A DNA stretch of 53,607 nucleotides from Candidatus Daviesbacteria bacterium RIFCSPHIGHO2_12_FULL_37_16 (GCA_001776785.1 MFDF01000016.1:1-53607), one strand, 5' to 3'; counted from the stretch's first letter, positions 4,858-49,379 are shown. Made by a program: numbers and translations. Notes: generated from the letters alone by a model not told the origin.

Positions 4858-4916
4858 TGTGACCCCAGCTGGATATATCACAATTTTTTAAATTGCTGAA
4901 CCAGCGACAAATTGAT
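4858..4916 (-). pseudogene. Duplicate 3' half of tRNA-Lys with a 23-nt hairpin replacing 2 nt of the T-loop
   Basis: tgtgaccccagctggat (4858-4874) is identical to 5032-5048; after the insert 4875-4897, gaaccagcgacaaattgat matches the tRNA's gaaccagcgaccaattgat. Confidence 0.8.
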
Positions 4917-4955
4917 AACACACCCAATCCGCCAGTTGGCGGATTGCAAGAGTCT
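4913..4955. repeat. Palindromic element ACACCCAAT-[hairpin]-ATTGCAAGAGTCT, copy 1
   Basis: tgataacacacccaat ccgccagttggcgg attgcaagagtct; flanks shared with copies at 4993-5032 and 18386-18417. Confidence 0.85.
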
Positions 4956-4958
4956 CTA

Positions 4959-4996
4959 TGTGAGGGCGCAGGGATTCGAACCCTGGACCGAATGAT
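4959..4996 (-). pseudogene. 3' half of a different tRNA (Lys-like) sequence
   Basis: Minus strand reads ATCATTCGGTCCAGGGTTCGAATCCCTGCGCCCTCACA: intact T-arm CAGGG-TTCGAAT-CCCTG plus acceptor 3' strand, no 5' half. Confidence 0.75.
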
Positions 4997-5032
4997 AATA
5001 CACCCAATTTGCTACGCAAATTGCAAGAGTCT
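4993..5032. repeat. Palindromic element ACACCCAAT-[hairpin]-ATTGCAAGAGTCT, copy 2
   Basis: tgataatacacccaat ttgctacgcaa attgcaagagtct. Confidence 0.85.
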
Positions 5033-5033
5033 G

Positions 5034-5105
5034 TGACCCCAGCTGGATTCGAACCAGCGACCAATTGATTAAGAGTCAACTGCTCTACCGCTGAGCTATG
5101 GGGCC
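5034..5105 (-). tRNA. tRNA-Lys(CTT)
   Basis: GGCCCCA TAGCTCAGCGGTAGAGC ... TTGA-CTCTTAA-TCAA ... GCTGG TTCGAAT CCAGC TGGGGTC A. Confidence 0.96.
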
Positions 5106-5580: not shown

Positions 5581-6276
5581 ATGCCTGTAAAGAAGAAATC
5601 TACTAAAAGAGCTGCAGCTAAATCAACTAAGGTTGAAAGAGCAGAGGAATCTGTCTCTTTTTTAAATTTAGCTAATATAAGATCAAGATTTACTAAATCA
5701 GGAAGGACAAAGTGGGTAATATTAACCCTTCTTTTGGCTGCATTAATAATATTTTTGGGAAATAAATACCTTATTGCTGCCTGGGTTAACAATAGACCAG
5801 TGACAAGACTTGAGCTTAATAATGCACTGCAGAACAGATATGGAAAGGATGTTTTAGAGGAGTTAATTGTTGAGAGATTAATTGAAGAAGAAGCCAGAAA
5901 AAGAAGTTTGACCGTTTCCCAGGAGGAACTGGATAATGAAATTAAAAAAGTTGAAGAGCAGCAGGGAGGAGCAGAACAGTTAGCCCAAATCCTGACTGCA
6001 CAAAATATCTCCAGGAATGATTTTAATAAACTTGTAAGATTGCAGCTTCTAAGACAGAAGATGTTTGGAGCGGGCAAAGATGCAACAGATGAGGAAGTTG
6101 AAAAATATATTGAAGAAAATAAAGACAGCCTTGCGTTAGAACAGAGGACTGCATCTGAGGAAGCTAAGTTTAAAGAAAGTATAAAAGAACAGTTAAAAAA
6201 CCAAAAGGTAAATCAAGAGTTTAATACCTGGCTGAATGGAGCTTTATCTGGTCCTGGAGTTTCCCGCCAGATTTAG
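5581..6276 (+). CDS. SurA N-terminal domain / PrsA-like membrane-anchored foldase
   Basis: TM helix then AAWVNNRPVT...GKDVLEELIVERLIEEEARKRSLTVSQEELDNEI; no parvulin domain visible. Confidence 0.8.
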   Translation: MPVKKKSTKRAAAKSTKVERAEESVSFLNLANIRSRFTKSGRTKWVILTLLLAALIIFLGNKYLIAAWVNNRPVTRLELNNALQNRYGKDVLEELIVERLIEEEARKRSLTVSQEELDNEIKKVEEQQGGAEQLAQILTAQNISRNDFNKLVRLQLLRQKMFGAGKDATDEEVEKYIEENKDSLALEQRTASEEAKFKESIKEQLKNQKVNQEFNTWLNGALSGPGVSRQI

Positions 6277-18385: not shown

Positions 18386-18417
18386 AACACACCCAATTCT
18401 TTCAGAATTGCAAGTCT
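18386..18417. repeat. Palindromic element ACACCCAAT-[hairpin]-ATTGCAAGTCT, copy 3
   Basis: aacacacccaat tctttcaga attgcaagtct. Confidence 0.75.
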
Positions 18418-24110: not shown

Positions 24111-26535
24111 TTTTTTGTTCTGCGCTATAAATTTTAGGGATTGTTTCTAACAATGAGTCTGGGTTTAGTGAAATACTGTCAATTCCTGCTTCAACTAAAA
24201 ATTTAGAAAACTCAGGATAATCAGAGGGGGCTTGTCCGCAAATTCCAATGTATTTTTGTTTGGACTTGCAGACTTTGATGACCTCCCTTATTAAATCTTT
24301 TACTGAATCATCATTTTCGTTACTTATATTTTTAATCCTTTCATTACCATCACGGTCTATGCCTAAGGTTAGCTGAGTGAGGTCATTTGAGCCTATGCTC
24401 ATGCCATCAAAGACCTCCAGGAATTTTTCAGCCAAAATTACATTTGAAGGGATTTCACACATGACATAGACTTTAAGGGTTGGGTCTTTTTTGCGGGAAA
24501 GCCCCGAAGACTCCATAATTTCTATGACTTTTCTACCTTCCTCTACAGTCCTGCAGAAAGGGACCATAACTACAATATTTTTAAGGCCAATTTCTTCCCT
24601 TACCTTTTTTATGGCTTTTAGCTCAAGTTTGAAGGCTTCTATAAAGGCAGGGTGGTAGTAACGGGAAGCGCCTCTCCAGCCAATCATTGGGTTTTCCTCT
24701 TCAGGCTCATAATATTGCCCTCCAAGAAGGGACCTATATTCATTAGTTTTAAAGTCAGACAGCCTGACTATAACAGGGTTTGGATAAAAAGATGCTCCAA
24801 TCCTGGAGATGCCATAGGCTAAATTATCTATATAGTAGTTAAGTTTATTTTTGTAACCTTTGGTAATTTTGAAAATCTTATTTTTAAGGGCAGGTTCAAG
24901 CTGTTTAAAATTTATTAAAGCCATTGGGTGAATCCCAATTGAGGCAATTATGAACTCTTCACGGGCCAGGCCCACTCCTGAGTTGGGATAAAAGGATTTT
25001 TCAAAGGCAGTTTCAGGAGTGGCAATATTGATCATGACTCTTGTGTTAGTTTTTGGGAGTTTTCTAATATCTTTTTGGATTACTTTAAACTTGATCTCAC
25101 CTTCAAAAATTATTCCCTCTGAACCTGTGGTATCTACTGTTATTAAAGTGCCATTTTTTAATTTTTTGGTAGCATCAGAGCATCCCACTACTGCAGGAAT
25201 CCCAAGCTCCCTTGAGACAATGGCTGCATGTGAGGTCCTGCCTCCCTTATCAGTGACTATGGCTGAGGCCATTTTCATGATTGGCTCCCAGTCAGGGTCT
25301 GTAATGTCTGTTACCAGAATTTCACCCTTTTGAAAACTGCCAATGTCTTTAACATCCATGATGATCCTGACTTTGCCTGATACAATTTTTTCTCCAACTG
25401 AGGCTCCTTTGATAAGAATTTGTCCTGAACCCTGCCTTTGGTACTGCTTTACAAGGTAGAGATCCCTTTCAGAATGGATAGTCTCAGGGCGGGCCTGGAC
25501 TATGTAAAGGTCACCATCTTGTCCATCTTTTGCCCATTCTATATCCATAGGAGTCCATTTGCCTGACTTTTGGGTGTAGTGGTCTTCAATTTCAACTGCC
25601 CATTTTGAAAGTTTTAATATTTCTTCATCTGTCAGGACAAAGCTATCACGCTCAGGTTCAGAGTTTTGAATAACTTTAGTGGGATTTTGGTCTGAGTAGA
25701 CCATTTTTTCTAATTTTGCTCCTAATTTTTTGCTGATAATTGGAGAGAAGTGGGATTTTTTAAGAAGCCTTTTTAAGGGATGGGAGGTTTTTTCTTTCCC
25801 GAGTGTTTTTTTAAAGACAACAAATTCATCTGGGGTAACTGAACCCTGGACAACCATCTCACCAAGTCCATATGAACCATTTATCAAAACTATATCTTTA
25901 AAGCCTGTTTCAGTGTCCAATGTGAACATGATACCTGAGCAGGCAAGGTCTGAGCGGACCATTTTTTGGACTCCAACAGAAAGTGAGATCTTAAAGTGGT
26001 CAAAGCCTTTATCTGCCCTGTAGGAGATTGCCCTGTCATTAAAGAGTGAGGCCATGGCTTTTTTGATGGCCTCTAAAAGGTTTTGTTCTCCTTTTATATT
26101 TAGGAAAGTTTCATGCTGGCCTGCAAATGAGGCACCAGGCAGGTCTTCTGCTGTGGCTGAAGAACGTACAGCAAAAGTAGAATTAGATCCATATTCTTTT
26201 TGGATTTGTTTATAGGAATTTAAGATTTCCAGTTTTAAATCTTCAGGAAAGGTAGATTCTACTATTTTATCCCTGACTGTTTTGGCTTTTCTGGTCAGGC
26301 TTCCCAGGTCTTTTACTTTTAAATCTTTTAAAGTATCTTTAATGAAATATTTTAACCCTGTTTTATCAAGGAAGTGCTGATAGGCTGAGGCTGTGACCAC
26401 AAAGCCTCCAGGGACCTTTATATCCTTTTTGGAAAGGGCCTGGATCATTTCCCCAAGCGAGGCATTTTTCCCGCCCACTTCTGACAAGTTTGAGAGGTTT
26501 ACTTCTGAAAGTTTCTTTGTGAAGGAGTTGGGCAT
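24100..26535 (-). CDS. ppsA: Phosphoenolpyruvate synthase
   Basis: VGGKNASLGEM, AVRSSATAEDLP.ASFAGQ, GGRTSHAAIVSRE, SIGSNDLTQ, GICGQAPSD. Confidence 0.97.
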   Translation of the reverse strand: MPNSFTKKLSEVNLSNLSEVGGKNASLGEMIQALSKKDIKVPGGFVVTASAYQHFLDKTGLKYFIKDTLKDLKVKDLGSLTRKAKTVRDKIVESTFPEDLKLEILNSYKQIQKEYGSNSTFAVRSSATAEDLPGASFAGQHETFLNIKGEQNLLEAIKKAMASLFNDRAISYRADKGFDHFKISLSVGVQKMVRSDLACSGIMFTLDTETGFKDIVLINGSYGLGEMVVQGSVTPDEFVVFKKTLGKEKTSHPLKRLLKKSHFSPIISKKLGAKLEKMVYSDQNPTKVIQNSEPERDSFVLTDEEILKLSKWAVEIEDHYTQKSGKWTPMDIEWAKDGQDGDLYIVQARPETIHSERDLYLVKQYQRQGSGQILIKGASVGEKIVSGKVRIIMDVKDIGSFQKGEILVTDITDPDWEPIMKMASAIVTDKGGRTSHAAIVSRELGIPAVVGCSDATKKLKNGTLITVDTTGSEGIIFEGEIKFKVIQKDIRKLPKTNTRVMINIATPETAFEKSFYPNSGVGLAREEFIIASIGIHPMALINFKQLEPALKNKIFKITKGYKNKLNYYIDNLAYGISRIGASFYPNPVIVRLSDFKTNEYRSLLGGQYYEPEEENPMIGWRGASRYYHPAFIEAFKLELKAIKKVREEIGLKNIVVMVPFCRTVEEGRKVIEIMESSGLSRKKDPTLKVYVMCEIPSNVILAEKFLEVFDGMSIGSNDLTQLTLGIDRDGNERIKNISNENDDSVKDLIREVIKVCKSKQKYIGICGQAPSDYPEFSKFLVEAGIDSISLNPDSLLETIPKIYSAEQKINS

Positions 26536-26619
26536 TAAATTAATAGTAACAGAAAAGTGTTAAGTTAATCCAGAAATTATGACTTTAGCTTTAAAATTGA
26601 TATAATAGCTTGTGCATCC

Positions 26620-26693
26620 GCCCCCATAGCTCAGTGGATTAGAGCGGGACGGTTCTAACGTCAAGGTCGGGGGTTCGAATCCCTCTGGGGGTG
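26620..26693 (+). tRNA. tRNA-Arg(TCT)
   Basis: GCCCCCA TAGCTCAGTGGATTAGAGC ... GACG-GTTCTAA-CGTC ... GGGGG TTCGAAT CCCTC TGGGGGT G. Confidence 0.92.
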
Positions 26694-26695
26694 CA

Positions 26696-26731
26696 AGATT
26701 TAAATTTCGGATTCATTCGGGATTTAAATCT
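26696..26731. terminator. Inverted repeat right after tRNA-Arg
   Basis: AGATTTAAAT...ATTTAAATCT arms. Confidence 0.5.
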
Positions 26732-26768
26732 TTCTCCTCGTTTGGAATTCTAAACTAATCTCTGATTT

Positions 26769-26825
26769 GGTTCGTTAATCCGAAGGATTAGGACATATCC
26801 CTCTGGGGGTGCTCACTCTGGGGGT
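26769..26825 (+). repeat. Two duplicates of the tRNA-Arg 3' end, the first with a hairpin in the T-loop
   Basis: ggttcg[ttaatccgaaggattaggacat]atccctctgggggtgc (to 26812), then ctctgggggt 26816-26825. Confidence 0.8.
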
Positions 26826-26868
26826 ACAAATTTGACAAGAGTTATATCTATTTGTTAATGTATTTTTG

Positions 26869-27510
26869 ATGCAAAAAAGTATTATTGCCCTTATTCTTTT
26901 CGCACTCTTCTTAATACCTTTGTACCCTGTATATGCTCAAAGCATTGCAACTCCGGCTGCAGGCAAACCTACTACAGCAATCCAGAGAGCACAACTTCTA
27001 AAAAATAACCTTCAGGCTAGCCCGGGCACAGTTGGGGATAAGATTGCCTCAAAGGGAGCTCAGCTTAAAGAAAAACTCCTTAGATTCAGGGACCAAAGAA
27101 AAGCCAAGCTTGCAGAAAAAATAAATGACAATTTAAATAAGATAAATGAAAGAAGAACTAACCAGATGATGGACCATGTTTCTAAGCTTTCAAATATTTT
27201 ATCAAGGCTTGATGAAAGAGTAAGCAATGCAGAAGCAAATGGTAAAGATATGAGCAGCGCAAATGCTGCAATAGCTGATGCAAATGCAAAAATTGCATCT
27301 GCTGAGGCTTCTGTAAGTGCACAAAAACTAAAGGATTATACAATAGAGGCAACATCTGAGGCTACAATAAAAGCTGATGCAGCTGCTATGAGAAATAAAC
27401 TTCACGATGATTTACAATCAGTGCATAATTTAATTGTTACTGCAAGACAGGCTGTAGCAAATGCTATTTCAACTGCAGTATCCAGTGCAAAGGGAGGAGG
27501 CACACCATAA
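26869..27510 (+). CDS. Secreted helical/coiled-coil hypothetical protein
   Basis: Signal peptide, Ala/Lys-rich helices; TTGACA...TAATGT promoter ending 7 nt before ATG 26869. Confidence 0.85.
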   Translation: MQKSIIALILFALFLIPLYPVYAQSIATPAAGKPTTAIQRAQLLKNNLQASPGTVGDKIASKGAQLKEKLLRFRDQRKAKLAEKINDNLNKINERRTNQMMDHVSKLSNILSRLDERVSNAEANGKDMSSANAAIADANAKIASAEASVSAQKLKDYTIEATSEATIKADAAAMRNKLHDDLQSVHNLIVTARQAVANAISTAVSSAKGGGTP

Positions 27511-48550: not shown

Positions 48551-49222
48551 TTATTCTAATACCAAGTGTTTCAGCCTGGATAATTCCTTTTGATAATCAG
48601 CCTGGTTAAAAACAAACTCTTTATATTTATCCTTGTTTTTAAAAAACCCCATTACAATCTCTGTATGTGTAAAGTGCGCGGAGTTGTCAGACAGGTAATC
48701 TTTAAAGGATGACCAAGGATATTTTTCCAAGTTTTCTATTTTAACTAAAAAACTAGTTGATGGATTTAGGTGAATATACCTTGAGAGGTGGACTAATTGC
48801 TCATCAGACTCTACCCTGACTGATTTAAACATTGATTGGAATAAGGGACCTACTCTGTCCTCTTTTAGGTTAAAGTATTTTACATATCCATTTTGTAAAT
48901 TCCTCATGAAAGTTGTGATTCCAAATTCACTAACCTGTTTTAGTATAAAATGAAAATGGTTAGGCATTAGGCAAAAAGCTAAAATTTTAACATGCAACTT
49001 TTTTTCTTTTTGCATGGAAGCCATAATCTCTTCTTTCATTTCTTCTGGGAGTTTGTTAAAGTGCGAGTAGCTGGTAGGAGTTTCCTCAAATCTGTAATAA
49101 TCAACTAAACTTAGGAATCTTTGATAATCTTTTGTTCGGGAGAAGATAGGTAATCTGGCTACTCCCCTGTTAAAAATGTGGTATATTTCATCAGGAGCTA
49201 GGACAAGATTTCTTGATGGCAT
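48551..49222 (-). CDS. REP-associated tyrosine (Y1/HUH, IS200-like) transposase
   Basis: YHIFNRG, FCLMPNHFH (HUH), GPLFQ, RYIHLNP, YPWSS. Confidence 0.92.
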   Translation of the reverse strand: MPSRNLVLAPDEIYHIFNRGVARLPIFSRTKDYQRFLSLVDYYRFEETPTSYSHFNKLPEEMKEEIMASMQKEKKLHVKILAFCLMPNHFHFILKQVSEFGITTFMRNLQNGYVKYFNLKEDRVGPLFQSMFKSVRVESDEQLVHLSRYIHLNPSTSFLVKIENLEKYPWSSFKDYLSDNSAHFTHTEIVMGFFKNKDKYKEFVFNQADYQKELSRLKHLVLE

Positions 49223-49280: not shown

Positions 49281-49308
49281 GATTTATAGAGGACGGATTT
49301 TCGCTGAG

Positions 49309-49379
49309 CTGCGGGACTAGGGCTCGAACCTAGATAAACAGATCCAAAGTCTGTTGTCCTACCATTAGACGATCCCGCA
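49309..49379 (-). tRNA. tRNA-Gln(TTG)
   Basis: TGCGGGA TCGTCTAATGGTAGGAC A ACAGA-CTTTGGA-TCTGT ... CTAGG TTCGAGC CCTAG TCCCGCA G. Confidence 0.96.

Follow-up and report, generated by a model that had tools for sequence, protein, structure and literature searches.

The recurrent string that follows the tRNA-Arg gene in the window (the whole stretch of 53,607 nt analysed here, contig C16:1-53607 of the Daviesbacteria genome G000) is probably the 3′ part of a module of CPR (Candidate Phyla Radiation) bacteria, one of the tRNA-linked repeat (TLR) kind, specifying a co-transcribed RNA that would mimic the top half of a tRNA. We are confident that this string and its counterparts belong to one module family of the TLR kind and do not record independent hits on T-loops; the part of the reading that gives the RNA a function is more tentative, and we would place it a little short of an even chance. 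The source genome comprises 1.02 Mb in 27 contigs, with 37% G+C and a bacterial 16S. The window holds eight tRNA genes. No Rfam family was found for the module: at the gathering score the window yields these eight tRNAs only, and four module loci searched at E ≤5 gave tRNAs or tRNA look-alikes only.

From 5′ to 3′ the layout of a module is tRNA, hairpin P1, strand B, GGGAT, hairpin P4 (ending in GGTTCR), hairpin P5, a tail, and a copy of tRNA positions 59–74. At the tRNA-Arg(TCT) locus the features are as follows.

26579..26606, plus strand: sigma-70-like promoter before tRNA-Arg (ATGACT, 16-nt spacer, TATAAT, with TG preceding the second hexamer), a consensus match only
26620..26694, plus strand: intact tRNA-Arg(TCT), CCA not encoded, C at position 74 (Rfam tRNA, 58.5 bits)
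26696..26731, plus strand: P1, a 16-bp AT-rich hairpin predicted by folding, beginning 2 nt past the tRNA end
26734..26747, plus strand: strand B, forming the 5′ side of the closing helix and in part complementary to the 16-nt copy (a weak pairing at this locus, -9.3 kcal/mol)
26752..26774, plus strand: P4 hairpin, holding the conserved box ATCTCTGATTTGGTTCG at 26758-26774
26776..26790, plus strand: P5, the 6-bp hairpin TAATCC-GAA-GGATTA, seen in the sequence and covarying family-wide
26791..26796, plus strand: tail GGACAT, this genome's variant of the family junction GGGYGTRTT
26797..26812, plus strand: exact 16-nt copy of tRNA-Arg positions 59-74, ATCCCTCTGGGGGTGC, which is the 3′ strand of the closing helix
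26816..26825, plus strand: further 10-nt partial copy of the acceptor 3′ strand, CTCTGGGGGT, 3 bases past the 16-nt copy

The promoter match upstream of tRNA-Arg is one found against 0.9 expected. P1 occupies the place of the terminator-like hairpin of relatives but lacks the T-run, and terminator prediction scored none at this locus. On the plus strand GGTTCG (26769-26774) is followed by a single T (26775), the P5 hairpin (26776-26790), GGACAT and then the 16-mer. The covariance model (CM) described below scores the Arg module at 55.4 bits over 26728-26812, and its P5 differs from that of the module behind tRNA-Ser(TGA) by a single compensatory pair. The canonical closing helix is weak at this locus, and it is not the predicted minimum-energy fold. 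Contigs from four public DNA runs over window positions 26000-27500 contained no joint skipping the Arg module; they broke at the tRNA and are therefore uninformative on module excision. A neighbouring PpsA-like gene, whose best relatives (63–65% identity) are from Candidatus Daviesbacteria or Patescibacteria, was used to seek orthologous Arg-TCT loci; synteny around it was not kept, and orthologous Arg-TCT loci could therefore not be compared.

The second occurrence in the window lies 3′ of tRNA-Lys(CTT), where two composite units are stacked.

5033..5105, minus strand: intact tRNA-Lys(CTT), found by tRNA prediction and Rfam
4960..5030, minus strand: Lys unit 1, with ACTCTT (5′ part of the anticodon loop), a hairpin at 5024-5005 and GGTGTATT at 5004-4997
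4859..4953, minus strand: Lys unit 2, with ACTCTT, a hairpin at 4947-4925, GGTGTGTT at 4924-4917, then tRNA-Lys(CTT) positions 38-74

Unit 1 continues with positions 38-74 of a different Lys-like tRNA, and no tRNA with this 3′ end occurs elsewhere in the G000 genome. The T-loop of unit 2 reads, on the minus strand, GGTTC (4902-4898), AG, the hairpin CAATTT-AAA-AAATTG (4895-4881) and TGATAT (4880-4875), and the unit ends in ATCCAGCTGGGGTCAC (4874-4859), an exact copy of tRNA-Lys(CTT) positions 59-74. Only at this locus does real tRNA-Lys sequence (positions 38-56) precede GGTTC, and here the same type of hairpin sits in true tRNA-Lys sequence at both the anticodon loop and the T-loop. A solo cassette that shares its type with those in the anticodon loops of the Lys-CTT units, GCAATTCTGAAAGAATTG followed by GGTGTGTT, lies at window positions 18386-18411 (minus strand) in an intergenic spacer with no adjoining tRNA. 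Another of this type, GCAATTTGTGAAACAAATTG followed by GGCGTGTT, occurs on contig C4 at ~5760-5790 (minus strand; L202), inside the loop of a hairpin CCACGGC ... GCCGTGG. The Lys-CTT locus and the two solo cassettes may hold a separate small hairpin insert.

The sequence-only reading had noticed the likeness of the Arg and Lys copies and had taken it as the mark of a mechanism acting at T-loops. Both strings are present, the Arg copy on the plus strand and the Lys copy on the minus strand, each before the ATCC of the 16-mer; the Lys string is as it was given except for its hairpin loop, which is AAA and not AA. Their recurrence is indeed beyond chance, since the window has two matches to the pattern GGTTC-N15-30-GAYATATCC, whereas 100 shuffles average 0.01 and none of them reached two. 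Extending the search to all tRNAs, as had been proposed, brought many more cases to light: in this genome alone, 8 of the 40 tRNAs predicted by ARAGORN, together with tRNA-Leu(CAG) and tRNA-Asn. The interpretation fared less well. GGTTCG in the Arg copy is no remnant of the tRNA-Arg T-arm but the end of the box ATCTYTGATYYRGTTCR, which is common to modules behind different tRNAs, and what had looked like a hairpin and GAYAT inserted into a duplicated T-loop is, in Arg and eight other canonical copies, P5 and the junction of a covarying module. Of the proposed T-loop mechanism one element stands: the junction is always at tRNA position 58/59, so that something tied to the T-loop-to-3′-end segment is involved. 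The two window copies are not independent T-loop hits; they are alike because of common descent and concerted change of P5 and tail within the genome.

Canonical modules lie directly 3′ of 9 of the 41 tRNA genes in G000, in addition to the composite Lys-CTT locus. The nine CM matches in this genome are behind Pro-GGG, Lys-TTT, Leu-CAG, Arg-TCT, fMet, Glu-TTC, Glu-CTC, Ser-TGA and Asn, all of them directly downstream of the tRNA and on its strand, as are 15 of 22 further CM matches examined. For the eight ARAGORN tRNAs the 3′ 16-mer recurs 110-180 nt downstream with at most two mismatches. The other two loci with a module are tRNA-Leu(CAG), whose copy has two mismatches, and the intron-bearing tRNA-Asn, whose module is at the start of contig C19 and whose tRNA is at the end of contig C6. 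The box pattern gave nine matches in this genome and none in the reversed control. A module amounts to ~120 bases of folded, non-coding sequence on the strand of the tRNA, ~90 nt plus the leading P1, and only 110-170 nt without an ORF separate the repeats. P1 starts 0-4 nt past the tRNA and in many relatives is a GC-rich stem followed by T-runs; ~25-35 nt lie between it and the box, and the tRNA end is 60-71 nt before the box in 30 modules of seven genomes. P5 is found in every canonical module, none of the loci compared being without it. The tail is GGGTGTATT or GGAYAT, with GGGYGTRTT in most genomes; GGAYAT is the tail of six of the nine canonical modules of G000 and of the Lys-CTT unit. The tRNA-specific end of the module measures 15-17 nt. 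We note that the P1 hairpins of six loci (L016, L019, L047, L058, L062 and L006) read outer stem, GGTTC, inner hairpin, GGTTC, outer stem. Inspection by eye found no match to hammerhead-like or other ribozyme cores.

RNAfold applied to 23 individual modules of normal size gave a recurrent picture in which P1 stands apart and B with GGGAT pairs long-range with the copy, enclosing P4 and P5; the GGTT of the box's GGTTCG lies in the 3′ strand of P4 and pairs within it. In the alignment the long-range helix depended on a structure that we supplied and then tested with controls; an RNAalifold consensus on the plain MAFFT alignment contained P4 and P5 only. In the structure-blind MAFFT alignment of the 23 modules, 78.4% of cells were paired against 67.1 +/- 1.2 after shuffling (0/500), the covariation score was 0.401 against 0.217 (0/500), and sliding the partners by 1-3 columns left 36-53% paired. 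A covariance model built from the MAFFT alignment of CPR modules was used to align 68 distinct copies, 82.2% of whose cells were paired against 65.9%, in an alignment that leans towards the model; both-side changes occur at every pair of the closing helix and every pair of P5. The covariation supports all helices of the module. B also fits its own copy better than those of other modules, with duplexes of -13.26 against -10.68 kcal/mol (n=30), and none of 5000 permutations was as good.

In at least 83% of modules the copy is paired at positions 60-63 and 67-71; at position 73 the share is 40%, and at position 74 it is 10%. Given these spans, the closing helix is like the T-stem and the acceptor stem of the cognate tRNA stacked on each other, N73 and C74 being mostly free. 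The idea that the paired segment is exactly the duplicated segment was dropped in view of the low pairing of positions 73 and 74. A plain copy of tRNA positions 1-7 describes B poorly (4.2/7 against 3.95/7, p 0.011), and given so slight a similarity to the tRNA 5′ strand, B is a complement in its own right. In 24 of 30 modules the sense strand folds more stably than the antisense (Wilcoxon 1.7e-5). G-U pairs number 128 in sense and 44 in antisense, an excess of which base composition could be part of the cause. The modelled strand bias points to RNA, or to a single top strand, in the direction of the tRNA.

CM matches were obtained in 29 of 96 genomes of the order; six genomes have 14, 11, 11, 10, 10 and 9 of them and the others 1-4, and the strict box is multi-copy in six genomes of the order. 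The conserved interior is common to modules of ~20 different tRNA species, and the copy follows the local tRNA. In G000 it matches at 16/16 positions in seven of nine modules (15/16 at Glu-CTC and 14/16 at Leu-CAG), and across 30 modules the exact match to positions 59-74/75 is 15-17 nt in 25 and 12-13 nt in the other five. Exact copies are also found in single-copy modules of other genera with different tRNA ends, among them those at fMet (G062, G089), Lys (G048, G043), Ser (G094), Pro (G071), Gln (G047) and Leu (G106). In these other genera unrelated hairpins take the place of P4, and what is kept is GGGATT, GTTCR, the tail and the exact copy of the end of the local tRNA. The copy varies between lineages as the tRNA does: the fMet T-stem is CCACT or CCTGG, and the Gly-GCC loci of G073 and G074 differ at five positions with each copy matching its own tRNA. 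A counter-case is G102, where the tRNA pair G7-C66 has become A7-T66 and the copy has kept C.

Likeness within and between genomes is nearly the same for P1 (0.568 vs 0.562) and for B (0.623 vs 0.608). The modules are therefore not recent transposition copies and have long been resident at their tRNAs. P5 with the tail is the sole part that is more alike within genomes (0.579 vs 0.492), the best pairs reaching 0.91 (Arg and Ser in G000, Gly and Pro in G016), and on these comparisons it appears to change in concert within genomes. A clean presence and absence bounded by the 16-nt repeat is seen at one locus only, fMet. Within one genus, G077 has the module there, whereas in G074, G075 and G076 the tRNA is followed directly by the flank. 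Since the G076 flank after the tRNA (including an encoded CCA) aligns with the flank past the distal copy of G077, the whole module is an indel bounded by the 16-nt repeat, and since fMet modules occur in at least five genera, precise loss via the repeat is the simpler direction. No second clean empty site was found at Tyr, where the spacer is replaced, or at Gly-GCC, where there is a different terminator, a decayed module or an unalignable flank. Most loci have a single unit; two adjacent CM matches lie behind tRNA-Cys in G073, as two units are stacked at Lys-CTT. At the tRNA-Gly-GCC locus of G074 (L083) a partial copy of the first ~20 bases of the tRNA lies ~60 nt upstream of the gene, and 5′-end duplications therefore occur at module loci too.

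The closest counterparts of the modules are the TLRs of E. coli, a group to which both the rrn TLR sRNAs RrA/B/F and the repeats of the tyrT locus (rttR) belong. [quoted passage not shown] At the tyrT locus of K-12 we found the 19-mer in both tRNAs and in four further units; upstream of its copy each unit has a 10-nt exact or near-exact complement, then GGTTCG, then small hairpins, and the complement–copy helix closes the MFE fold and the centroid fold alike. In rrnB the 5S gene is followed by terminator T1, a body rich in hairpins and a copy of 13 nt. CPR modules and TLRs thus share a position directly downstream of a tRNA (for TLRs, a tRNA or 5S) on the same strand, a 3′ end that copies the gene from the T-loop on and a terminator-like hairpin between gene and unit (T1 in rrnB); the stacking of units, of which a TLR locus has one to five, may be a further common trait. 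With the tyrT units they share, in addition, the complement of the copy, GGTTCG, small GCGAAGC-type hairpins, a fold that closes on the copy and a junction at the same T-loop position. The CPR copy is shorter, at 15-17 nt without CCA against 18-19 bp with it, because CCA is mostly not encoded in the genomes that have modules.

The modules differ from TLRs in size (~90 nt against ~160-180), in having junctions of their own (GGGATT, GTTCR and GGGYGTRTT) and in occurring, within a 1-Mb genome, after as many as 14 different tRNAs; here we describe the covarying B strand and the three-way fold for the CPR modules. The CPR-module CM found no detectable homology at the E. coli tyrT locus (best E 0.24), and the link to TLRs therefore rests on the hallmark and the layout, not on homology. 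A 17-nt word, GAGGAGCGAAGCGACGA, is identical in P5 of the Gly-GCC module of G016 (L014) and in the E. coli tyrT-tyrV spacer (L119); in both it lies just upstream of the copy, and it exceeds the longest word in all 100 shuffles (largest 13). We also note that GAGCGAAGCGA-type mini-hairpins recur in several modules and in the TLR of rrnB. The available part of a preprint on the E. coli mobilome (10.1101/2024.07.17.603846) gives no mechanism for the tyrT repeats, and a search of the full-text literature outside subscription journals found no paper on such modules in CPR or Daviesbacteria.

On the grounds of strand bias, covariation and what is seen in E. coli, we take it as most likely that the module is co-transcribed with the tRNA and folds as a mimic of its top half. 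By analogy with the rrn TLRs, read-through of P1 would carry transcription from the tRNA into the module, and where P1 is terminator-like, as in many relatives, that read-through would be limited. The transcript would fold as RNA with B and GGGAT paired to the copy, so that the closing helix would imitate the acceptor and T-arm top half of the module's own tRNA, with P4 and P5 in the place of the T-loop. Such a tRNA-like helix could let the machinery that acts on tRNA ends define and stabilise the module, and the 16-nt direct repeat would permit its precise loss by recombination.

The exactness of the copy is the main puzzle, and because of it a functional role specific to the tRNA stays in consideration. 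Generic tRNA-end enzymes need no exact 16-nt match, and RNA processing therefore leaves the exactness unexplained; nor is an exact copy expected of neutral DNA, because identical repeats favour loss. An extension that we regard as rather unlikely is that TLR-type modules are an ancient functional RNA device, spread from E. coli to CPR bacteria, in which selection keeps the 3′ strand identical to the tRNA. If so, the precursor could switch between two folds, since B is able to pair either with the tRNA 3′ strand (across P1) or with the copy, and the module could then sense or buffer the folding and maturation of the tRNA, or could alternatively act as a decoy or sponge for the enzymes, nucleases or 3′ tRNA fragments that read that tRNA end. 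The presence of the TLR hallmark in a genome-reduced groundwater CPR bacterium suggests upkeep by selection or by a general process at tRNA 3′ ends, and not an E. coli oddity. The family provides a defined structure model with ~70 natural variants, and explains recurrent partial tRNA duplicates in CPR genomes that could otherwise be misread as integration scars.

Among the rival explanations the best placed, which we nonetheless consider unlikely, is that the module is a selfish, gene-less miniature cassette that inserts at the T-loop-to-3′-end segment of tRNAs, is moved in trans with B as a target-pairing guide, and either makes the 16-bp target duplication or carries a replacement 3′ end. 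Exact 16-nt direct repeats bracketing the module, a paired segment that largely coincides with the duplicated one, and the fMet case, in which the distal copy has the native CCA and flank, are what insertion would leave, and a copy number that ranges within one genus from 3 to 14, the stacking of units and the decay of some distal copies are likewise in keeping with mobility. On the other hand, two interiors of one genome are no closer to each other than interiors of different genomes, many genera keep single-copy modules with exact copies, the occurrence of the fMet module in at least five genera makes its absences look like losses, and a duplication made by insertion cannot provide a matching B strand. 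REP/REPIN elements, moved by RAYT (Y1) transposases, are comparable in being small, hairpin-forming, multi-copy and non-coding, and G000 has two Y1_Tnp genes; the modules differ from them in being tied to tRNA ends with a tRNA-specific copy, and G077 and G073 have no Y1_Tnp.

No candidate enzyme tracks the modules either. A search for RVT_1, Y1_Tnp, TnpB, Phage_integrase, Cas1 and RtcB in five genomes, four rich in modules and one poor, found none whose presence follows module number. RVT_1 (PF00078) was found in G000 only and in none of the four others, Y1_Tnp (PF01797) was missing from G077 with 14 modules and G073 with 10, and TnpB (PF07282) and Cas1 (PF01867) were found in none of the five. 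Tyrosine recombinases number two or three in each, and the sole one near a module, that of fMet, keeps its synteny whether or not a genome has the fMet module. Four further ideas were set aside on these results: a spare part for tRNA repair (RtcB ligase in 0/5 genomes), a retroelement copying the tRNA 3′ end (reverse transcriptase absent from 4/5), an IS200/IS605 PATE or TnpB guide RNA (PF07282 in 0/5) and a casposon-like or Cas1-made long duplication (PF01867 in 0/5). The G000 reverse-transcriptase matches are fragments at two contig ends (C17:5-481 and C1:12-248), probably one gene split by the assembly. One of its two Y1 transposase genes is in the window:

48551..49222, minus strand: Y1 transposase ORF, IS200-like, 223 aa (PF01797, E 2.9e-8), adjoining tRNA-Gln at 49308-49379

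The other lies near tRNA-Tyr on contig C8, and in G021 a similar Y1 ORF is found ~1 kb upstream of a module without a tRNA (L004).

We judge it improbable that P5 and the tail are themselves the insert, namely a mini-hairpin cassette of 22-31 nt (a stem-loop plus GGTGTRTT or GAYAT) that enters hairpin, T- and anticodon loops. A cassette of one type does take the place of the anticodon loop in each Lys-CTT unit, and it also lies in unit 2's T-loop, within the loop of another hairpin on C4 and alone at 18386-18411, these loci being the strongest evidence for the idea. The greater likeness of P5 with its tail within genomes also speaks for an insert; gene conversion or co-evolution with a binding factor, however, would explain such concerted change as well. 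Against an insert, no canonical module without P5 was seen among the loci compared, P5 is a CM position in all 68 distinct copies, and no enzyme was identified.

Islands and prophages of the T-loop sublocation are flanked by direct repeats running from the T-loop to the tRNA's 3′ end and leave the tRNA intact, an arrangement that the modules share; they differ from such islands in having no integrase or any other gene, a conserved folded interior and ~20 target tRNA species. That the modules are decayed attL/attR scars of integrase-bearing elements of this class is very improbable and largely refuted, since the direct repeats, which are those expected of T-loop-class integrases, enclose just 110-170 nt with neither ORF nor integrase, a single integrase would have to serve all ~20 tRNA species around a conserved, covarying interior, and the recombinase near the fMet module is syntenic also where that module is absent. 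The available part of a study of archaeal tRNAs (Sugahara et al. 2012, PMC3293823) describes a 1.8-kb element with a recombinase, as well as introns; there too partial tRNA copies adjoin tRNA genes and tRNA loops are the junctions, and in so far as that text goes the CPR case differs in its bacterial host, in involving no gene and in leaving the functional tRNA uninterrupted.

The tRNA-Asn locus lies outside the window. G000 seemed to be without tRNA-Asn because ARAGORN without intron mode overlooks the gene, and it does so because the anticodon loop of tRNA-Asn(GTT), at C6:94176-94454, is interrupted by a ~209-nt group I intron (Rfam RF00028, 76.7 bits, C6:94200-94408). Contig C6 ends in ~45 bases that also begin contig C19, so that the two join within the tRNA-Asn module, the assembly having broken at the repeat.
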